A stretch of 64,000 nucleotides of DNA from Candidatus Uhrbacteria bacterium GW2011_GWE2_46_68 (GTDB taxonomy: Bacteria; Patescibacteriota; Patescibacteriia; UBA9934; GWF2-40-263), in the NCBI GenBank assembly GCA_001002765.1, contig LCMS01000004.1, positions 68,775 through 132,774 of the forward strand. Direction: 5' to 3'. The notes under the pieces are model-generated. The model saw only the letters and a program-made list of their open reading frames with translations, searched no databases and was not told where the DNA came from. Position 1 is the first letter of the stretch. Each line of letters opens with the position of its first letter. This document shows positions 42,841 to 49,521 of the stretch, one piece after another. The position numbers and the translations under genes were made by a program.

Positions 42841-44103
42841 TTAAGAAAAATATTTCCTATTTTTGAGAGACGGGGGAAGATACTCTTGTTTGGCATCGTT
42901 TGTATTTTCAAAGTCCGGCGTGTATTTATAGCCTTTGCTATAGCCAAGATTTTTCATGAGGTTAGTGGGAGCGTTTCGCAGATGAAGAGGAACAGGCTCG
43001 GTTGGCGTTTCTTGAATGTCTTTTTGTACAGCCATGTAGGCAGTATAGAGAGCATTGGATTTTGGCGCTTTTGCAAGATAGAGAACGCTTTGAGCCAGAC
43101 AGACATTACATTCAGGCATGCCAAGGAAATGGGCGGCTTGATAAGAAGCGATGGTTTGAACAAGCGCTTGGGGATCGGCAAGACCTATATCTTCGCTGGC
43201 AAAGCGTACAAGACGACGGGCGATATAGAGCGGATCTTCTCCAGCTTCGAGCATGCGTCCCAACCAATAAAGCGCAGCATTGGCATCCGATCCGCGCATG
43301 GATTTATGAAGAGCAGAAATAATATTGTAATGTTCCTCGCCCGCACGATCGTAGACGAGGTGCGTGCGCTGGAGCGCTTGTTTGATGGTTTCTTCATCAA
43401 CACACACCTGCCCATTAGCGCTCGCTTCGGATGATTGGACCGCAAGTTCCAGTGCATTGAGTGCTGTGCGCACATCGCCATTGGCCGCTTGAGCAAGAAA
43501 TGTGATCAGCTCATCGCTGATGGAAACCGACAGATTTCCCAAACCTTTTTTTTCATTTTTGAGCGCGTGCTTCAAGATGGTTTCAATATGATCAGAAGTA
43601 AGAGCCATCAGAACAAAAACGCGACAACGAGAAAGAAGAGCTGCATTGATTTCAAACGAAGGATTTTCCGTGGTGGCACCAATTAAAATAATGGTGCCGT
43701 TTTCGACCGAGGAAAGAAACGCATCTTGCTGACGTTTATCAAATCGATGAATCTCATCGACAAAAAGAATGGTGCGTTTTTGATAAAATTTTTGTTGTTC
43801 CTCCGCTTCCTTAATAATCTCGCGCACTTCTTTGACACCGTTGTGCACCGCGGAGAAATGGACAAAATGCGCATGGGTTTTTTGAGCAATGAGATGAGCC
43901 AGTGTTGTTTTGCCTGTCCCGGGTGGCCCCCATAAAATCATCGAAGGCACTTCGTCTTTTTCAATGGCTTTTCGTAAAACCGTTCCAGGACCGATAATCT
44001 GATCTTGGCCTAGGTAATCCCCAAAATCCTTAGGCCTCACCCGATCCGCCAGAGGAGAAGATCGAAAGCGATGTTCTTCTTGTTTGTGAGAAAAGAGGTC
44101 CAT
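42841..44103 (-). CDS. rarA: replication-associated recombination protein A (AAA+ ATPase)
   Basis: GPPGTGKTTLA Walker A, DEIHRF Walker B, MgsA C-terminal domain. Start set at MDLFSHKQ to avoid overlap with the upstream gene. Confidence 0.85.
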   Translation of the reverse strand: MDLFSHKQEEHRFRSSPLADRVRPKDFGDYLGQDQIIGPGTVLRKAIEKDEVPSMILWGPPGTGKTTLAHLIAQKTHAHFVHFSAVHNGVKEVREIIKEAEEQQKFYQKRTILFVDEIHRFDKRQQDAFLSSVENGTIILIGATTENPSFEINAALLSRCRVFVLMALTSDHIETILKHALKNEKKGLGNLSVSISDELITFLAQAANGDVRTALNALELAVQSSEASANGQVCVDEETIKQALQRTHLVYDRAGEEHYNIISALHKSMRGSDANAALYWLGRMLEAGEDPLYIARRLVRFASEDIGLADPQALVQTIASYQAAHFLGMPECNVCLAQSVLYLAKAPKSNALYTAYMAVQKDIQETPTEPVPLHLRNAPTNLMKNLGYSKGYKYTPDFENTNDAKQEYLPPSLKNRKYFS

Positions 44104-44108
44104 AATGG

Positions 44109-45014
44109 TTAGGTCGGAAGAAAGAGACGATGATGTTTTAGAGCGATCAATCCCTCCTTTTGCAGACGCACTATCATGGCTTTGATCCAAGCTTGATCCA
44201 GAGACAGATCAAAATGGGGATCAATCATGGGGCCGATTGTTTTGAGAAATGTCTCCGGATGTTCGCGAACAAATTTTAGAATTTTCCCGCGGTAGATACG
44301 ATCAGGATAAGGTTTATTTCTATGTCGAGATTCTTTTGCTTTTTTGATCATGATTTTTGGGATGCGGACGTGACCGGAGAGAAATCGAGGAGCCGATTTA
44401 CAGATGGCCTTCAGCGGGCAGGATGCACAGGCCGGAACTTTTGTGCAGGTGGATGTTGCCAGATCAAAGAGGGCTTGAGGTACATCATAAAATGCTCCGC
44501 GTTTTGGCAAGACAAAATCGGCAGATTGAACAATTTTTTTATCCATCTTTAAAGTTGGGTAGGGAATTCCAAATAAGACTCGTCCAAGAACGCGTCGAAT
44601 ATTGGTATCAATAGGGAGCGTTCGTTGATGTAGAGCAAAAGCACAGATGGCCGCGGCCGTGTAAGGACCAACCCCTTTGATTTTTTCCCAAGCTTCAGGA
44701 GTAGAAGGAACACCGTGCGCTATGATGTGTTTTGCAATATCTCGCAAGACTAAAGATCGACGATTATAGCCAAGTCCTGACCAGACCATGATCACCTGCC
44801 CATTGGTGGCTTCGGCGAGAGATTCCCAGGTTGGAAATTGTGTAAGCCAGCGTTTGTAAAAAATCATGACGCGCGAGACTTGGGTTTGTTGAAGCATGAT
44901 TTCGCTTACCAAAATTCGGTAAGGATCACGAGTTTGGCGCCAAGGCAAATCACGTCCGTGTTGACGGTACCATCGTAAAAGCGTGCTACTCAATCGTGGG
45001 GACATAAATGACAC
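44109..45014 (-). CDS. A/G-specific adenine glycosylase / endonuclease III family (HhH-GPD, 4Fe-4S)
   Basis: HhH-GPD region (IKGVGPYTAAAICAFA) and Cys cluster CTKVPACASCPLKAIC. Confidence 0.7.
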   Translation of the reverse strand: MSFMSPRLSSTLLRWYRQHGRDLPWRQTRDPYRILVSEIMLQQTQVSRVMIFYKRWLTQFPTWESLAEATNGQVIMVWSGLGYNRRSLVLRDIAKHIIAHGVPSTPEAWEKIKGVGPYTAAAICAFALHQRTLPIDTNIRRVLGRVLFGIPYPTLKMDKKIVQSADFVLPKRGAFYDVPQALFDLATSTCTKVPACASCPLKAICKSAPRFLSGHVRIPKIMIKKAKESRHRNKPYPDRIYRGKILKFVREHPETFLKTIGPMIDPHFDLSLDQAWIKAMIVRLQKEGLIALKHHRLFLPT

Positions 45015-45597
45015 CAGCGTCTACGAGTGCTTTATAGTGCTCTGGCGAATGGCGATACAGATACTCCAAAAGTTTTCCGCGAATATAATCAATCGAAAAT
45101 CCTTTACCTACGGCGTAGTCCACGAGTTTTTTTGCGGCTTCTTCTTTTTGATTTTCTTCGGTCATAATCTCTATTTCCGCCACTAAATAAGGATGACCAT
45201 CTCCAAGGTCACAGGAATCAAGATCAATGGAATAAGGTTCATCCTGATAGCGTTTTCGTGTGGTCGTGATGGTGCTAAAGGGGGCGTATCCGGCTTGCGC
45301 GAGAATCTCGTTTGTGAGCGTGCAGGGAGGAAGGTGAAGAACCTCACAAGTCTCTTCGTCCGTCTCGATTTCACGATATTGGGTGAGAGCCATTTTGTTT
45401 CCCAGAACATGGAGAGGAGTTTTGATTTCAAATCGACCGTTACGATTGCGCAGCCATATGTCTTTGCAAGTGAGAACAAAATCCAAAGTGTCGTAGTAGG
45501 TATCGGTTTGAATTTTTTCCCCAAGAAACGTGGCGCTTGCGATGATTTTTGCTTCTTGCTCTGGAGTAAAGTGAAACTTTTTCTCGATCTCGATCAT
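44986..45597 (-). CDS. CYTH domain protein (triphosphate tunnel metalloenzyme)
   Basis: MIEIEKKF start carries the CYTH ExExK motif. The longer track ORF up to 45783 would run through the tRNA exon and is rejected. Confidence 0.6.
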   Translation of the reverse strand: MIEIEKKFHFTPEQEAKIIASATFLGEKIQTDTYYDTLDFVLTCKDIWLRNRNGRFEIKTPLHVLGNKMALTQYREIETDEETCEVLHLPPCTLTNEILAQAGYAPFSTITTTRKRYQDEPYSIDLDSCDLGDGHPYLVAEIEIMTEENQKEEAAKKLVDYAVGKGFSIDYIRGKLLEYLYRHSPEHYKALVDAGVIYVPTIE

Positions 45598-45739
45598 AGG
45601 GGATATTGTTAAGGACGGGTTGATTGTAACATGACCATTGGTGCCTTGCACGGCATAGATTTCTTTGTTATGCTTTTGCCACGTTCTTTGGAAAAAAGAA
45701 TTATTCCGGGGTAGCTCAGTGGTTAGAGCGGCTGGCTGT

Positions 45740-46318
45740 GGCACACGCTTATAGGTATTATAGAATTCTATGGAATCCAACAAGCGATCCTATGCCCGAC
45801 GCGCGGAATATCTCAAAAAAGCAGTTGTACGCAGAAGGCGTGAAGTTCGAGAGAAGGCGATTGCTCACTTAGGTGGTCAATGTCAGATATGTGGTTATAA
45901 ACGTTGTGAGCAGGCTCTCGATTTTCATCACCGCAACCATAAGGAAAAAACATTCGGCATTTCCCAAAAAGGATATACAAGATCTTGGGAAAGAGTAAAA
46001 GAAGAACTAAAAGGTTGTGTCTTTCTTTGTGCAAATTGTCATCGAGAAATTCACGCAGGGTATACGCAGCTTCTGACAGAGATGTCAGAATGATCATAGG
46101 GTGAACTTCTGGAAGCCTACATCCGAAAGGATATGGTAATCAGAAGCCAAGCCCCACGAAGTTTAAGACAAGTGGGGAAGGTTCAGAGACTATCCGTTAT
46201 GACCCTCAAAAGAGAGGGGAGGAGTACCTCGCCAAAAGGCGGGGGAAGCGCCCTACATCCTCGCAATATGCAGGATGATGATATAGTCCACCCCTTTGGG
46301 AAACCAAAGGATGATGTG
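45740..46318 (+). ncRNA. group I self-splicing intron in tRNA-Asn anticodon loop (between nt 36 and 37)
   Basis: Catalytic-core element R (GTTCAGAGACTATCC, 46181-46195) and element S (GATATAGTCC, 46280-46289) form P7. 5' splice after U, terminal omega-G at 46318. Contains an HNH ORF. Confidence 0.7.
45770..46093 (+). CDS. HNH homing endonuclease (intron-encoded)
   Basis: CQICGYKRCEQALDFHHRNHKEK...CVFLCANCHREIHAG carries the HNH/zinc-finger motif. Located inside the intron 5' region. Confidence 0.75.
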   Translation: MESNKRSYARRAEYLKKAVVRRRREVREKAIAHLGGQCQICGYKRCEQALDFHHRNHKEKTFGISQKGYTRSWERVKEELKGCVFLCANCHREIHAGYTQLLTEMSE

Positions 46319-46382
46319 TAACCAGTAGGTCGTGGGTTCAAGTCCCACCCCCGGAGCCACAAAGATCCCTAGCAATTTGCTA

Positions 46383-46465
46383 GGGATTTTTGTTATCCGT
46401 GATAGAATGATCGTGAAGTTTCCGTGTGTACAAACAGAAAAGTCCGATGTCCGGACTTGACCCTG
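46383..46465 (+). repeat. 83-bp direct repeat copy A (T-tract + extended -10 promoter TGATAGAAT + 5'UTR with REP-like core)
   Basis: Identical over ~74 nt to 47925-48008. Preceded by hairpin CCCTAGCAA-tt-TGCTAGGG at 46367-46385. Contains GTCCGGACTTGACCC, related to REP rc CGACCTGACCC. Confidence 0.8.
46400..46408 (+). promoter_or_regulatory. extended -10 promoter box TGATAGAAT (within repeat A)
   Basis: TGnTAnAAT extended -10. The same 21-nt box T(T/G)TCCGTGATAGAATGA(T/C)CGT also occurs at 47942 and 49483. Confidence 0.5.
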
Positions 46466-46504
46466 TTTTCCATTGCCTCAAACGAGAACCATAACAATTC
46501 CACT

Positions 46505-47200
46505 ATGCAAAATCGTCCACATACAACACTTTTCATGCTCATGTCGATAGATGGCAAAATTACAAGCGGAGATTCGGACAGTCTTGACTCAGATCGTGAT
46601 TGGAAGCGTATTTGTGGCGTGAAGGAAGGGCTTTATCAATATTATGATCTAGAGAAACAAACCGATTTTTGTTTTCTACAAAGCGGTCGCGTTTTCGAAA
46701 AAATTGGCATGAATAATCGAGGACCATCAGTTGAAAAGATCCCTGTGACCGGGGTAGTCATAGACAACAAGCCGCATCTCAATGCAAAAGGCCTGCGCCA
46801 TCTTTCAACCTGGTTAGACCGAGTGATTATCGCCACAACAAATCCAAACCATTCCGCACATACTTTTGGAGGAAACGTACAGGTCATTCAATACAACAAC
46901 ACGATTGATTTCTCCGCTTTACTGACAGAGTTAAAAGAGAATTTTGACGTTGACCGAGTCACCATCCAAACCGGCGGTACATTGAATGGTCTTTTATTGC
47001 GTCAGGGACTCATTGACGAATTATCAATCATCGTAGCCCCACTTGCTGTTGGAGGAAAGGGAGTATCAACACTTATCGACGGTGAGGCAATCCATTCCGT
47101 TAATGATTTGAACAAGTTAAAGGCACTCGAACTTACATCCTGTGACGTATTGAAACATTCATTCCTTCATCTTCGTTATACAGTTTTAAACTATTCGTGA
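46505..47200 (+). CDS. dihydrofolate reductase-like / RibD C-terminal domain family protein
   Basis: MQNRPHTTLFMLMSIDGKITSG... with C-terminal GGTLNGLLLRQGLIDELSIIVAPLAVGG, typical of the RibD_C/DHFR-like fold. Start at internal ATG 46505, downstream of the repeat. Confidence 0.55.
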   Translation: MQNRPHTTLFMLMSIDGKITSGDSDSLDSDRDWKRICGVKEGLYQYYDLEKQTDFCFLQSGRVFEKIGMNNRGPSVEKIPVTGVVIDNKPHLNAKGLRHLSTWLDRVIIATTNPNHSAHTFGGNVQVIQYNNTIDFSALLTELKENFDVDRVTIQTGGTLNGLLLRQGLIDELSIIVAPLAVGGKGVSTLIDGEAIHSVNDLNKLKALELTSCDVLKHSFLHLRYTVLNYS

Positions 47201-47838
47201 TGAGGGTTGAAACTGTATACTGTTCAGGTATGAAGAAAGAAATAAAATTTCCGACAAAACAAGAAGTTGATGTCCACATAAATCAGAACAGGACGGAACT
47301 TTTTTCTGACCCAGACTTTCGGGAATATGAGGAAGTGGATATTATTTTTCTCGAACCAACACAACTTATTGCTTTGAGAGATTACCCTCCTCTGCACAGT
47401 CCCGAAGCTTTTACGGTGTATCGCAAGAAATTTGTAGCAGGTGAGAGAGTTGAACCCATTGTTGTTATTCCATCTCGAATTGTTATTGAATATTTAAAGA
47501 AGAATGAAGTTCGTGCTCATACGTACAGACAAGAACTTGAGCTGTTTCTTAATACACACCCACGAGCCACATACTTTATGCTCGGTGGCAAACATCGTTC
47601 GGCTGCAGCAACGATATTAGGTGTAAGAATTCCTTGCCTTGTGATCAGCAACGATGCTGATGTCGCTAAAATTAACGCTCTTATGGCGGAAGGTAAACTG
47701 ACAGGCATGCCGAGTGTTGGAGAAAATTTTAAAAGGACACTTTCCGAATTAGATGATCATTATTTTGAACACAAAGTTTTTTGGACCATGGATGAAAAAA
47801 CAAAAGCAATGATAGATCACGGGGACATTTCTCTTTAA
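47197..47838 (+). CDS. ParB/Srx-like nuclease domain protein
   Basis: LGGKHRSAAATILGVRIPCLVI resembles the ParB N-terminal domain core (GG.HR). ATGA overlap with the upstream gene. Confidence 0.45.
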   Translation: MMRVETVYCSGMKKEIKFPTKQEVDVHINQNRTELFSDPDFREYEEVDIIFLEPTQLIALRDYPPLHSPEAFTVYRKKFVAGERVEPIVVIPSRIVIEYLKKNEVRAHTYRQELELFLNTHPRATYFMLGGKHRSAAATILGVRIPCLVISNDADVAKINALMAEGKLTGMPSVGENFKRTLSELDDHYFEHKVFWTMDEKTKAMIDHGDISL

Positions 47839-47924
47839 AGTCAAATGAAAAAAATTTAGCGCTCGAATGGCTGTTTTTGAATGACTCATAACAGGGAATC
47901 GGCAAAATTCTTCAGCGAAGGCTG

Positions 47925-48008
47925 GGGATTTTTGTTATCCGTGATAGAATGATCGTGAAGTTTCCGTGTGTACAAACAGAAAAGTCCGATGTCCGGACCT
48001 GACCCTGT
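47925..48008 (+). repeat. 83-bp direct repeat copy B (T-tract + extended -10 promoter + 5'UTR)
   Basis: Identical to 46383-46465 except 1-2 nt. Preceded by hairpin CAGC-gaag-GCTG. Promoter box TGATAGAAT at 47942-47950. Confidence 0.8.
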
Positions 48009-48035
48009 CCTCCACCGTTTTCCTTTGGTCTCATT

Positions 48036-48233
48036 ATGAAAAAATTTCATGGAAAAATATTTTATTTTGTCTTCACCATATTGTTTGGTGCATTCACGTT
48101 CCTCTATGGGGAATTTGATGATAGCCCCGGTGGCCAATTGATAGGATTGGCGGCGGTTATTATTGGCATCATAGGTTCGATGCGTTCATTGCGCGCGGCA
48201 AGCCGCATGGGACGAACGAACAAAAAGTCATAA
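48036..48233 (+). CDS. small membrane protein (2 TM)
   Basis: 65-aa hydrophobic ORF immediately downstream of repeat B. Confidence 0.3.
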   Translation: MKKFHGKIFYFVFTILFGAFTFLYGEFDDSPGGQLIGLAAVIIGIIGSMRSLRAASRMGRTNKKS

Positions 48234-48240
48234 TAGTTTT

Positions 48241-49371
48241 ATGAAAATTGCAACAAACATTGGACGTGATGCTTTTGGTGGAATCACTATTTCCAACCTT
48301 GCCCTTTTTGATTGGCTCGAAGACAAAGAGGATACTATTGTTGGTATTGAATACGTAACTTCAAGACATTTTTTAGGGGCGGTAATCTTTCGTCGTTACC
48401 TTCCCTCGTTTTTCAGTCATCACATTATTAACGGTATAGATATTATTCCCCGTTTTTCTTGGGAGAAAAGTGGCAATCTCAGAAAACGTTGGAATATCTT
48501 AGTCGAGACAACAAAAAATGTTTTACGACAAGAAGCACCAGATATCGTTTTGATTAATGGGACATATTTTGCCCCTTGGATACTCGCTATTGCAGCACAC
48601 GAGCTCGGTATTCCCATTGTTTTACGATATGCGGGTGTGTTACAAAGAGAAGTAGGTCATAGACCTTTTTTTATTAAAAGACGTCTTTTGTCTTATGAAA
48701 GATGGTTGGCATCAGCGGCCAACTCTATCATTTTTCCCTCAACTCTTTGTCAGATGGTCGTAGAAAAGGAAATAGTAGGACATGCTGTGAGACACAGTGT
48801 CGTAATACCAAATCCAGCCACATCAGGTTTATTGCGCCATCAAAAACCAAACAGTCGTTATGTTATAGCCGCAGTCGGTCGTTGGTCACGAATAAAAAAC
48901 TTTCAGGCTTTTATCACGCTTCATCAATCGTTGTTAGAAAAGAAGTTTCCACACCAAGCAATCATGGTTACTTCGTATTGGGACAAAAAGTTCGGTATTC
49001 CAGAAACCATTGAATGTAAAGATCCCATGAGTCAAGAAGATCTTCAAAAGTTTTATCGATCAGTTGATCTTCTGATTGTTCCTTCACTTTTTGAAACTTT
49101 TTGTAATGTTGCGGCCGAAGCATTGGTGAATGGAAGTTCCGTTCTGGTTTCTAAAAATGTGGGTTTTGCCGAAATACTCATCAAGGCTGGACTTAAACGT
49201 ATGGTGATTGATTCGTTTGATTGTCCTGAAAAAGTTGTATTAGCGATAAAACGATTGGCTAAAATAAAACTTTCAGAAAAAGAAAGAAAAAGGGTCGTCG
49301 CTTTGCTCAATCCGCAAGAAATACATCAAGACATTCTTAAGACGCTTGTCGGAGTTGTGAAAGGAAAATGA
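48241..49371 (+). CDS. glycosyltransferase family 4 (GT-B fold)
   Basis: C-terminal IVPSLFETFCNVAAEALVNGSSVLVS matches the GT4 E-x7-E region. Confidence 0.65.
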   Translation: MKIATNIGRDAFGGITISNLALFDWLEDKEDTIVGIEYVTSRHFLGAVIFRRYLPSFFSHHIINGIDIIPRFSWEKSGNLRKRWNILVETTKNVLRQEAPDIVLINGTYFAPWILAIAAHELGIPIVLRYAGVLQREVGHRPFFIKRRLLSYERWLASAANSIIFPSTLCQMVVEKEIVGHAVRHSVVIPNPATSGLLRHQKPNSRYVIAAVGRWSRIKNFQAFITLHQSLLEKKFPHQAIMVTSYWDKKFGIPETIECKDPMSQEDLQKFYRSVDLLIVPSLFETFCNVAAEALVNGSSVLVSKNVGFAEILIKAGLKRMVIDSFDCPEKVVLAIKRLAKIKLSEKERKRVVALLNPQEIHQDILKTLVGVVKGK

Positions 49372-49482
49372 TGAATTGTATGAAAAAATATTTTTTAGCA
49401 CTCCCGAGTCACTGTTTTCAAATCACTTGCGATGTGGGTCCAGGAAAATTTTTCAGATTCGTCTGGAGATTTTCATTGTCCG

Positions 49483-49491
49483 TGATAGAAT
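49483..49491 (+). promoter_or_regulatory. extended -10 promoter box TGATAGAAT (third copy of conserved 21-nt box)
   Basis: TTGTCCGTGATAGAATGACCGT, preceded by a small hairpin plus T-tract, 30 nt upstream of the 49522 start. Confidence 0.45.
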
Positions 49492-49521
49492 GACCGTAAG
49501 TATTTTTAACCCATTTTTCCT

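Follow-up and report, generated by a model that had tools for sequence, protein, structure and literature searches.

An anticodon-interrupting group I intron with a putative HNH homing endonuclease gene in tRNA-Asn(GUU) of Candidatus Uhrbacteria

Positions 45705-46359 on the forward strand of the DNA analysed here (a stretch of 64 kb from Candidatus Uhrbacteria, Patescibacteria, called the window below) hold a tRNA-Asn(GUU) gene that is split by a 579-nt group I intron. From comparisons with related loci, it is very probable that the interruption lies between the anticodon bases U35 and U36, that the intron is of subgroup IA, and that it carries the gene of an HNH-type homing endonuclease.

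Results

The split gene and its intron-less allele

A preliminary description of this DNA had stated that two tRNA halves lie 579 nt apart and join to a canonical cloverleaf. Both statements hold: The exons occupy 45705-45739 and 46319-46359, ARAGORN folds them after joining into a canonical cloverleaf, and the intron-less allele that had been suggested as a check was found in a relative. This allele, on the metagenome contig L117, is an uninterrupted tRNA-Asn gene that is identical to the predicted spliced product at 76 of 76 positions, has the anticodon loop CTGTTAA, and scores 75.3 bits on the tRNA model of Rfam (RF00005). L117 is syntenic with the window (84% identity over 1.8 kb upstream); the alignment runs to 45739 and picks up at 46319, and exactly 45740-46318 is absent from L117. 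The same site is thus found with and without the intron in collinear relatives. The features of the locus are the following:

45705-45739, + strand: 5' exon of tRNA-Asn(GUU), nt 1-35 (35 nt), ending in C32 U33 G34 U35; the L117 alignment stops exactly at its end
45740-46318, + strand: group I intron, 579 nt, IA-like, site 35/36, with a core backed by covariation; missing from the syntenic allele
45770-46093, + strand: intact ORF in the P1 loop (L1), 107 aa plus stop; predicted product an HNH-type (putative homing) endonuclease
46319-46359, + strand: 3' exon of tRNA-Asn, nt 36-76 (41 nt), with U36 A37 A38, anticodon stem, T arm, acceptor, G73 and encoded CCA; 100% identity to L117:1805-1845
46360-46392, + strand: terminator-like hairpin and U run directly 3' of the tRNA; RNA fold of -21.6 kcal/mol

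With its default settings, ARAGORN called only tRNA-Trp in the window and missed the split gene. The hairpin behind the tRNA is also the first copy of a cassette that is present three times (repeat family D2); the scan for consensus terminators did not list it, though it is obvious by its fold. The promoter scan returned three sites as compared to 1.6 expected from shuffles, i.e. nothing above the shuffle expectation.

The ribozyme core

The suggested search with Infernal for the group I intron model of Rfam (RF00028) resulted in a match at 45999-46310 that is far beyond chance (87.6 bits, E=5e-21, gathering score 50), and the gathering score was also passed by six of the eight related loci tested. 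Likewise, the elements R and S that had been proposed to form P7 are present: R (GTTCAGAGACTATCC) is located at 46181-46195 and S (GATATAGTCC) at 46280-46289, and five of their bases pair. Every helix from P1 to P9 can be formed in the window sequence. The alignment to the Rfam model begins only within the ORF (at 45999) and misplaces P1 and P2; a manual assignment of these two helices was used instead. In a consensus structure on 71 related introns, 91.9% of the cells were paired as compared to 69.0% in shuffles, changes on both sides were observed in 46 of 58 pairs, and the covariation score was 0.544, against 0.169 in shuffles and at most 0.106 in slid controls. All elements lie on the + strand:

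45735-45740: 5' strand of P1, exon G31-U35 plus intron G+1; pairs with 46065-46070; the 5' splice site follows U35 (45739)
46065-46070: 3' strand of P1, the internal guide C-GCAGC, within the codons ACG CAG CTT; G46066 wobbles with U35
46073-46088: P2 hairpin (CUGACA-GAGA-UGUCAG); compensatory changes in six of six pairs, 97.4% of cells paired
46097-46103: 5' strand of P3, partner 46249-46255; 90.5% paired
46107-46182: P4-P5-P5a-P6-P6a domain; 75-100% paired, most helices with double changes
46107-112 with 46140-145: P4 of this domain
46116-46136: P5/P5a, with a GAAA loop
46146-147 with 46181-182: P6 of this domain
46152-155 with 46174-177: P6a of this domain
46188-46192: 5' strand of P7 (GACUA), in element R; pairs with 46284-46288, 99.7% paired; pseudoknot with P3
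46193-46223 and 46227-46244: P7.1 and P7.2 hairpins, between P7 and the 3' strand of P3; 86% and 82% paired, double changes in every pair
46249-46255: 3' strand of P3, from the covariation alignment and the window sequence
46258-46275: P8 hairpin; 85.8% paired, double changes in four of four pairs
46284-46288: 3' strand of P7 (UAGUC), in element S, from the covariation alignment and the window sequence
46290-46317: P9.0 (46290-291 with 46316-317), enclosing P9; pair types AU/GC and CG/UA/AU/GC
46293-46310: P9 hairpin with a GAAA loop; two helices in the covariation alignment
46318: terminal guanosine (omega G), G in 82 of 82 introns; the 3' splice site follows, and the L117 alignment resumes at 46319

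One pair of P7 shows changes from U-A to C-G. We assign the intron to subgroup IA because P7.1 and P7.2 extend its core; the text of a published survey assigns 25 of 28 introns at 35/36 to this subgroup (PMC13011429).

The splice junction and the anticodon

As read from the sequence, the insertion site is the one between the anticodon bases 35 and 36, and four independent lines fix the junction: (i) the register of P1, (ii) the covariation in P9.0, (iii) the conserved omega G, and (iv) the syntenic intron-less allele. Thus, the mature tRNA would have the anticodon GUU. The preliminary description was right about the U at the 5' splice site and the terminal G, since the 5' exon ends with U and the intron with G; its placement of the insertion between nt 36 and 37 has to be corrected, as exon 1 ends with U35 and exon 2 starts with U36.

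In P1, the U35·G46066 wobble marks the 5' splice site. The guide GCAGC is invariant in the 82 unique related introns, and because it never varies the five core pairs of P1 are uninformative either way; only the +1 pair covaries. This pair (+1/IGS-1), next to the splice site, is a standard pair (G-C, A-U or U-A) in 93% of the 82 introns. Past +1, the extension of P1 lacks conservation (+2 paired in 29%, +3 in 27%). Positions 31 and 30 are paired in 79% and 78% of the introns and show no covariation. In each of the 82 introns, the base at -1 is U and the last base is G. At the 3' side, the P9.0 pairing is 100% in 71 sequences, with double changes, and the terminal G lies directly 3' of it. By eye, no convincing P10 pairing between the 3' exon and the bases 5' of the guide was seen. 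Among 32 metagenome contigs with the spliced anticodon arm, 29 were called tRNA-Asn(GUU).

Another suggested check, ARAGORN with intron search, recovered the split gene and the cloverleaf but not the right junction: The program placed the intron behind position 33 and reported Thr(tgt) i(34,579). The host gene would then be a tRNA-Thr(UGU) gene interrupted between nt 33 and 34, with exon 1 ending in CU and exon 2 starting with UGUAA, and we regard this reading as almost certainly wrong. It is true that U at -1 and a final intron G are also present for this junction in the window, and that the best matches of the resulting product are tRNA-Thr genes: A BLAST search of E. coli genomes gave two records for the Thr version, both plasmid tRNA-Thr genes, and 273 records at 80% coverage or more for the Asn version, the top-listed ones all being tRNA-Asn. 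This comparison mostly tracks the anticodon and is weakly informative. However, U33 pairs with A in the conserved P1 and not with the wobble G, the covariation in P9.0 sets the terminal G at 46318 and not at 46316, the terminal G is missing at the Thr-type junction in 24 of 83 related loci, and the syntenic allele reads as tRNA-Asn. Moreover, in bacterial tRNA-Asn the identity marks outside the anticodon are the discriminator G73 and U1-A72, whereas bacterial tRNA-Thr has G1-C72 and A/U73. Both Asn marks are read directly in the window tRNA; U1 is present in 82 of 82 related tRNAs and G73 in every one inspected, and the Thr marks are absent. The choice of tRNA-Asn, for which G73 had been the sole argument, is thus strengthened by the P1 register, P9.0, the omega G and L117. 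The same miscall by ARAGORN/tFind is documented, together with a sequenced 35/36 ligation product in relatives, in the text of PMC13011429. For 91 related split loci, ARAGORN called Thr, Asn, Ser, His and Tyr, though all are tRNA-Asn genes. The choice of junction by the program is arbitrary and, in the window, incorrect; since its junction and isotype calls are unreliable for split genes, they were not used.

The ORF in the P1 loop

The ORF and the ribozyme overlap: The last 10 codons of the ORF double as the 3' strand of P1 and as P2, and the conserved C-terminal TQL codons are the guide sequence of the intron. In the databases, the identical protein is listed under Candidatus Uhrbacteria as a hypothetical protein. 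The coordinates and intactness of the ORF agree with the preliminary description, and its assignment to the HNH nucleases, which is weaker for the window sequence alone, is supported by sequence at the family level. The window protein reaches 14.6 bits on the Pfam HNH model (PF01844; cut-off 21.4, E=0.037), and searches of Pfam and NCBIfam with the single ORF gave only sub-threshold HNH matches. PF01844 is matched at E<=0.01 by 16 of 25 close relatives (best E=7e-7), and a few of the relatives carry a precomputed match. In the 25-sequence alignment (CxxC...HH...CxNCH), C38, C41, H53, H54, C87, N89, C90 and H91 are invariant, with the four zinc-binding Cys and the catalytic HH among them, and the CH-R-E residues are invariant as well. 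A profile of the family found McrA and, with E=0.004, the HNH domain of a group II maturase (6me0); where this domain has its middle Asn, the family is variable. The AlphaFold model (pLDDT 81) has a strand-strand-helix arrangement at 50-54, 83-87 and 88-96, and the top 30 or so matches of Foldseek in the PDB are nearly all HNH nucleases, with a best E-value of 0.08 that is not significant alone.

The family is large and conserved, with at least 400 clusters of homologues. All 82 unique introns contain an intact ORF, and each of the 91 complete loci with the ORF is a split tRNA-Asn gene. The same intron with the ORF is present in unrelated phyla (by record title), among them on a closed 5.5-Mb Acidobacteriota chromosome.

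Discussion

Our data suggest a model for splicing and homing. The gene would be transcribed as a single precursor. P1 would arise between G31-U35 plus G+1 and the guide C-GCAGC, located 325 nt further downstream, and the catalytic core would consist of P3 to P9, in which P7 is a pseudoknot and P7.1/P7.2 are the extensions of IA. A free guanosine would attack after U35, P9.0 would set the terminal G46318 into the guanosine pocket of P7, and ligation of the exons would yield a normal tRNA-Asn of 76 nt that has the loop CUGUUAA and an encoded CCA. We infer that the window copy splices. The product of the ORF may cut or nick intron-less tRNA-Asn genes around 35/36, and repair would copy the intron in (homing); the carrier would be protected because the inserted intron splits the target of the nuclease. 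Both the nuclease activity and the target of the 107-aa protein are predictions. Among the points against this model is that P1 must close over a 324-nt loop that is under translation.

Two other views of the locus have to be weighed. It is highly improbable that the interrupted gene is a dead tRNA pseudogene whose function is carried out by another, intact tRNA-Asn gene elsewhere in the genome. Our inspection covered 64 kb of the genome, and the NCBI name of the ORF protein is merely 'hypothetical protein', and both would agree with a pseudogene. Against this, neither the core helices nor the two splice-site signals are damaged, the exon sequences recur unchanged in the functional-looking gene on L117, and the window contains no second tRNA-Asn loop. 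Moreover, the text of PMC13011429 has it that, in the genomes surveyed, copies with and without an intron seldom coexist for one anticodon, and that both genes in the published splicing assay are the sole copies in their genomes. The idea that the intron splices but that the ORF no longer encodes an active homing endonuclease has more in its favour and is nevertheless unlikely: The ORF would be a decaying passenger or have another role, e.g. help in RNA folding, and the intron would be immobile and vertically inherited. The window protein stays under the Pfam HNH cut-off, and the family varies at the residue that corresponds in the alignment to the middle Asn of the HNH motif. Decay after fixation is a known fate of homing endonuclease genes. 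In addition, bacterial tRNA introns are argued in the text of PMC13011429 to move seldom, since most of them lack endonuclease genes. In contrast, all the unique introns have an intact ORF, and the zinc-binding Cys, HH and CH-R-E residues are maintained. Finally, the presence or absence of the intron in syntenic relatives and its spread together with the ORF over unrelated phyla form a pattern that fits recent mobility. An intron that splices and carries a homing endonuclease gene is thus the reading that we prefer.

The class to which this intron belongs has already been described. Nakagawa et al. (mSystems 2026; PMC13011429) report group I introns of subgroup IA at 35/36 in tRNA-Asn(GUU) of Patescibacteria, two representatives of which self-splice precisely in vitro; these two are from other genomes, and their ORF status is unstated in the text. 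The site itself was reportedly first listed by Williams 2020 (bioRxiv 10.1101/2020.01.27.920355). The introns in PMC13011429 share with the window, as far as the text goes, the tRNA, the site, the phylum, the subgroup and the Thr(UGU) 33/34 miscall by ARAGORN, and a subset of them has the same HNH endonuclease family. According to the text, just four introns have HNH genes, all of them from Patescibacteria, whereas we find at least 400 clusters of the ORF family, which by record title also occurs in Acidobacteriota and other phyla; the supplementary text has no HNH entries. The location of an ORF in P1 and phage relatives are absent from the text of PMC13011429, which uses neither 'internal guide' nor 'bacteriophage'. 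In the preliminary description, the novelty of the locus was overrated: The same class is published for the same phylum with in vitro splicing, and the window locus is a correct but ordinary find. The Uhrbacteria genome, a draft by its record, is presumably outside the Nakagawa set of 95 complete genomes. The information added by our analysis is modest: The junction now rests on more than similarity to other tRNAs, since covariation in P1 and P9.0 and a natural allele without the intron fix it; the ORF is placed in the P1 loop with its TQL codons as the guide; and the HNH-bearing form, with four published cases, turns out to be much more common and, by record title, to extend beyond Patescibacteria.

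Introns in other bacterial and organellar tRNA genes differ from the one studied here. Reinhold-Hurek and Shub in 1992 and Zaug et al. in 1993 are said to have described introns in cyanobacterial and plastid tRNA-Leu(UAA), in tRNA-Ile of Azoarcus and in tRNA-Arg of Agrobacterium. These classical introns are small members of IC3 (about 200-250 nt) without an ORF, located at 34/35 or 36/37, whereas the window intron is of subgroup IA with P7.1/P7.2, is located at 35/36, and carries an ORF. The tRNA-fMet intron of Synechocystis with I-Ssp6803I (Bonocora and Shub 2001, in PMC3984707) is similar in that a group I intron in the anticodon loop is combined with a homing endonuclease, and the target of I-Ssp6803I is, according to the text of PMC3984707, the region around the anticodon in the tRNA gene without the intron. 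This intron is unlike the window intron in its site (33/34 in tRNA-fMet), in its nuclease (PD-(D/E)XK and not HNH), and in its cyanobacterial host (PMC3984707). Its subgroup is probably IC, as for 81% of bacterial tRNA introns, whereas that of the window intron is IA. The combination of an IA ribozyme with an HNH endonuclease is known from the phage introns with I-HmuI (SPO1), I-BasI (Bastille) and I-PfoP3I (Pf-WMP3) (PMC3428280). These introns, which we liken to the window intron by description, reside in DNA polymerase genes, and their proteins are larger and have separate DNA-binding domains.

Phages also provide nucleases that target tRNA genes. Akulenko et al. are said to have reported in 2004 on F-TflI/II/IV of T5, free-standing HNH homing endonucleases in the phage tRNA cluster. 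SegB of T4, a GIY-YIG enzyme that is free-standing in the phage tRNA cluster, has its preferred site inside the tRNA-Asn gene (PMC2330249). Neither SegB nor the T5 enzymes, which are compared here by description, are intron-borne, and SegB is of a different nuclease family than the window ORF. Free-standing relatives of the window nuclease adjoin tRNA-Asn genes in phage tRNA arrays. The intron-borne proteins, from Patescibacteria and a few other phyla, constitute one nearly monophyletic branch inside the P1 loop of the tRNA-Asn intron, and in some phage contigs the nuclease gene is located directly in front of a tRNA-Asn gene that has an ORF-less intron of the same family at the same site. It is conceivable, and in our view only a little short of probable, that this nuclease family is specific for tRNA-Asn genes and has two lifestyles, free-standing in phage arrays and intron-borne in bacteria; some of the phage contigs look intermediate. 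In the literature, we found no paper stating a link between phage tRNA-array nucleases and tRNA-Asn introns.

If the intron is not recognized, the genome seems to lack tRNA-Asn or is credited with a false tRNA-Thr(UGU). Such errors distort completeness estimates and tRNA inventories for Patescibacteria, as already argued in published work. If the phage link is true, group I introns occur in phage tRNA genes, and the series would record the merger of a free-standing homing endonuclease and an ORF-less intron with a shared target into a mobile intron. Through the phage link, the long-standing question of how introns acquire endonuclease genes could become tractable.

Results

A tRNA-Asn gene interrupted by a group I intron

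The two halves of a tRNA gene are separated by 579 nt (window 45705-46359, +). As the preliminary description had stated, the group I core elements R (46181-46195) and S (46280-46289) lie between them, together with an intact ORF at 45770-46093. The proposed group I intron is borne out by the Rfam model, which matches 45999-46310 with 87.6 bits (E=5e-21; gathering score 50). ARAGORN called no tRNA at this locus on default settings; with its intron search, it recovered the split tRNA with the 579-nt insert and labelled it Thr(UGU). The observation of a split tRNA with an intron is confirmed far beyond chance.

Features of the split tRNA locus
45705-45739 (+), tRNA-Asn exon 1, 35 nt, TCCGGGGTAGCTCAGTGGTTAGAGCGGCTGGCTGT
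45770-46093 (+), HNH-type ORF, 107 aa, intact, in the P1 loop (L1)
46319-46359 (+), tRNA-Asn exon 2, 41 nt, TAACCAGTAGGTCGTGGGTTCAAGTCCCACCCCCGGAGCCA
46360-46392 (+), strong hairpin with a U run, directly 3' of the tRNA

Our scan gave no convincing promoter candidate for the split tRNA. A mechanical ORF for a CYTH-domain protein (44986-45783, -) extends over exon 1 from a TTG codon at 45783. Its real start is probably a Met some 62 codons further in (MIEIEKKFHF), which coincides with the beginning of the Pfam CYTH match; therefore, there would be no true overlap with exon 1. Right after the tRNA, a cassette of about 53 nt, made up of a hairpin and TTTTTGTTATCCGTGATAGAATGATCGT, occurs three times (46362, 47904 and 49445; window 46362-49497) at spacings of 1542 and 1541 nt; the companion sequence of the hairpin is TAGAAT. 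Copies 1 and 2 extend to 94 nt with 96% identity, and the cassettes bound two gene modules of 1.54 kb each that differ in content.

The intron is located between nucleotides 35 and 36

Sliding the exon junction yields eight candidate products, and only two of them follow the group I rules, with U preceding the 5' splice site and G ending the intron: CU/UGUAA, which gives tRNA-Thr(UGU) with the intron at 33/34, and CUGU/UAA, which gives tRNA-Asn(GUU) with the intron at 35/36. The tRNA has U1-A72 and G73, with U1 in all 82 tRNAs of the unique related introns. Bacterial tRNA-Asn is characterised by U1-A72 and G73, in contrast to tRNA-Thr with its G1-C72 and A73 or U73. In P1, exon G31-U35 and intron G+1 pair with C-GCAGC (46065-46070), and U35 forms a wobble pair with G46066. 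Since U33 pairs with an A in this helix, it is excluded as the splice-site U. The guide GCAGC is invariant across the 82 introns, and the pair between intron position +1 and the guide's 5' neighbour is standard in 93% of them (61 G-C, 12 A-U, 1 U-A and 2 G·U). P9.0 joins 46290-46291, after P7, to 46316-46317, before the terminal G; it is retained in all 71 sequences of the structural alignment through AU/GC and CG/UA/AU/GC changes, and this covariation places the terminal G at 46318. With the Asn junction, U at -1 and a final G are found in 82 of 82 introns; with the Thr junction, 24 of 83 loci would have A, U or C as the last intron base.

The preliminary description had suggested a search for intron-less alleles in relatives, and such an allele was found. 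A search for the spliced anticodon arm in metagenome contigs identified 32, in 29 of which ARAGORN called tRNA-Asn(GUU). One of the 32, L117, shows synteny with the window: its positions 1-1804 align with 43936-45739 at 83.8% identity, ending exactly at 45739, and L117:1805-1845 is 100% identical to 46319-46359. Its uninterrupted tRNA gene (Rfam tRNA, 75.3 bits) is identical to the predicted Asn product at 76 of 76 positions. L117 carries a single downstream cassette and neither of the 1.54-kb modules.

The Thr(UGU) junction at 33/34 is thus rejected by the P1 register, P9.0, the conservation of the terminal G and the intron-less allele. By these four independent lines, the host tRNA is tRNA-Asn, and because all of them favour Asn, the intron lies between nucleotides 35 and 36. 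The earlier identification as tRNA-Asn(GUU) stands, and the site 36/37 given with it was a miscount.

The ribozyme fold is supported by covariation

All helices from P1 to P9 form in the window sequence.

Helices of the intron (all +)
45735-45740 with 46065-46070, P1
46073-46088, P2
46097-46103 with 46249-46255, P3
46107-46112 with 46140-46145, P4
46116-46136, P5/P5a, GAAA loop
46146-46182, P6/P6a
46188-46192 with 46284-46288, P7, pseudoknot with P3
46193-46223, P7.1
46227-46244, P7.2
46258-46275, P8
46293-46310, P9, GAAA loop

To test the structure, we aligned 71 related introns with MAFFT, blind to structure, and projected it onto them. Standard pairs occupied 91.9% of the cells versus 69.0% in shuffles, a figure that is somewhat favoured by taking the structure from the window sequence; nonetheless, double changes were numerous, with both sides changed in 46 of 58 pairs. 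The covariation score was 0.544 versus 0.169 for shuffles, none of 500 shuffles was as high, and it fell to 0.106 or less when partners were slid by 1-3 columns. P7.1 and P7.2 between P7 and P3' mark the intron as a predicted member of subgroup IA.

In alignment A2, eight loci (L002, L011, L023, L046, L064, L065, L082 and L089) lack the P7.1/P7.2 segment and have an altered P3/P6 sequence (GGGAAC... instead of GCCAAG...); L002 and L011 had been fetched via Gracilibacteria/Peregrinibacteria proteins. Therefore, the ribozyme that carries the HNH family exists in two or more structural forms. A 62-aa ORF inside the core (46133-46321, +) is probably spurious.

The ORF in L1 belongs to an HNH-type family

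The ORF starts 30 nt past the 5' splice site and ends at 46093, just past P2. Its last ten codons double as RNA structure: the guide lies within ACG CAG CTT, and P2 is encoded by CTG ACA GAG ATG TCA G. The C-terminal motif TQL(P) is kept among intron-borne proteins and is absent in both free-standing phage relatives that were examined closely, which fits an RNA rather than a protein constraint.

Databases list an identical protein, named only as hypothetical, from a Candidatus Uhrbacteria bacterium (Patescibacteria). This single protein scores 14.6 bits against Pfam HNH, below the cut-off of 21.4, and its NCBIfam match is weak. At the family level, the HNH assignment made from the sequence alone is sound: the homologues form at least 400 clusters, PF01844 is matched by 16 of 25 family members, and C38, C41, H53, H54, C87, N89, C90, H91, R92 and E93 are invariant in the alignment. 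The family profile also matches the HNH domain of the group II intron maturase 6me0 (E=0.004) and McrA 6ghc (E=0.04). The AlphaFold model (mean pLDDT 81) has as its best PDB fold matches nearly exclusively HNH nucleases, among them Cap5, Gme nickase, T5 SciA, ZRANB3, T4 endonuclease VII and the Cas9 HNH domain, with weak E-values (0.08 or more). Since the residue aligned with the middle Asn of the classical HNH motif varies in the family, we only infer nuclease activity.

Related introns occupy the same site

Scanning species-representative genomes revealed at least 589 stretches encoding a relative of the ORF. We compared 94 loci: 80 from these genomes, 13 fetched via eight homologues, and the window. 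A split tRNA was present in 91, the remaining three being cut by contig ends, and all 91 read ...CTGT-intron-TAA...; therefore, all are tRNA-Asn genes with the intron at 35/36. The related introns are 496-641 nt long. By record title, the hosts are mostly Patescibacteria, with others in Elusimicrobia, Omnitrophota, one Limisphaerales MAG and three Blastocatellia (Acidobacteriota) MAGs, one of these a closed 5.5-Mb Pyrinomonadaceae chromosome (L071, OY970389.1); many titles reading 'uncultured Gammaproteobacteria' resemble placeholders. The loci labelled Acidobacteriota, Elusimicrobia, Omnitrophota or Limisphaerales are L071, L078, L093, L034, L044, L053, L086 and L049.

Phage relatives of the ORF lie next to tRNA-Asn genes

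At least 564 confirmed stretches on viral contigs encode relatives with 40-60% identity that usually lack the first ~17 residues. Among 80 fetched viral loci, one (L126) has the intron-borne arrangement; the others (L127-L205, IMG/VR) carry free-standing genes within phage tRNA arrays (for example L127:1501-1826, L131:1501-1818, L139 and L145). Any tRNA at all lies nearby for 55 unique phage ORFs. For 38 of them, the closest tRNA on one or both sides is tRNA-Asn(GUU), a count reached in none of 5000 permutations, and Asn makes up 13% of the tRNAs in these loci. In 14 of the 17 cases with tRNA-Asn downstream, this gene starts -16 to +7 nt from the end of the ORF. In Bacillus phage Bastille (JF966203.1 5857-6685), an annotated HNH gene has an annotated tRNA-Asn gene on either side, and a tRNA-Asn 3' fragment, from GGCTGTTAACC, is found a few bases past its stop.

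In three viral contigs (L169:517-1149, L146:1393-2249 and L200:1483-2339), the HNH gene is directly upstream of a tRNA-Asn gene with an ORF-less group I intron of about 190-205 nt. The introns of L169 (RF00028, 67 bits) and L146 belong to the family of the window intron and share its 35/36 site, with the guide GCAGC 7-9 nt past the splice site; that of L200 is apparently at 33/34. The L169 and L146 introns show that the ribozyme is self-sufficient and that the window ORF was inserted into its L1. In the three contigs, the arrangement resembles an intermediate stage between nuclease genes that stand alone and those borne by introns.

Neighbour-joining separated all 82 intron-borne proteins, plus one viral sequence, L150, from the rest by a split; at most two viral sequences fell on the intron-borne side in 72 of 100 bootstrap replicates. 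The intron-borne proteins share a median identity of 63% with one another, and the phage proteins 49%. In L150 (1400-2100), the ORF has an intron-type N-terminus and follows a 5' tRNA fragment (acceptor and D arm, the anticodon arm not being Asn-type); a structured region after the ORF is unrecognised by RF00028. This locus could represent a divergent intron within a different tRNA.

Discussion

The split tRNA-Asn is a real, probably functional element and a good example of its class. In the mechanism that we propose, the precursor would be transcribed straight through the intron, P1 would close over a 324-nt loop, and guanosine would attack after U35. P9.0 would then deliver G46318 to the P7 pocket, and exon ligation would give tRNA-Asn with the loop CUGUUAA. 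Translation of the ORF crosses the 3' strand of P1 and P2, and translation and splicing of one molecule would thus be mutually exclusive. The putative nuclease would cut intron-less tRNA-Asn genes, and insertion of the intron would abolish the cut site.

The window intron is a further member of a published, experimentally supported class. In 95 complete Patescibacteria genomes, Nakagawa et al. (mSystems 2026, PMC13011429; preprint 10.1101/2025.07.03.662931) found group I introns at 35/36 in 15 tRNA-Asn(GUU) and 3 tRNA-Asp genes, nearly all of subgroup IA and often miscalled as Thr(UGU) or Ala at 33/34 by ARAGORN and tFind. One tRNA-Asn and one tRNA-Asp intron self-spliced in vitro, the ligated tRNA was sequenced, and an omega-G to C mutation blocked exon ligation (PMC13011429). 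The same work traces the first report of the site to the development of tFind, described by Williams (bioRxiv 10.1101/2020.01.27.920355). Four tRNA-Asn introns of more than 500 bp encode PF01844 HNH endonucleases, a combination found only in Patescibacteria among complete genomes, and hosts outside this group were anticipated for draft genomes (PMC13011429). To this, our analysis makes minor additions: the proof of P1 and P9.0 by covariation, the placement of the ORF in L1 overlapping the guide and P2, a natural intron-less allele, a far larger count of HNH-bearing copies, and hosts outside Patescibacteria by record title.

The phage connection might be the sole new part. Phages are not mentioned in the text of Nakagawa et al. 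(PMC13011429). According to a review from 2014, all phage group I introns known at that time were in protein-coding genes (PMC3984707); contrary to this statement, L169, L146 and L200 indicate that such introns occur in phage tRNA genes. One attractive reading is that a single merger may have joined a phage nuclease specific for tRNA-Asn to an ORF-less intron, but the alignment behind it is short, the tree simple and the 'viral' labelling of the contigs unverified.
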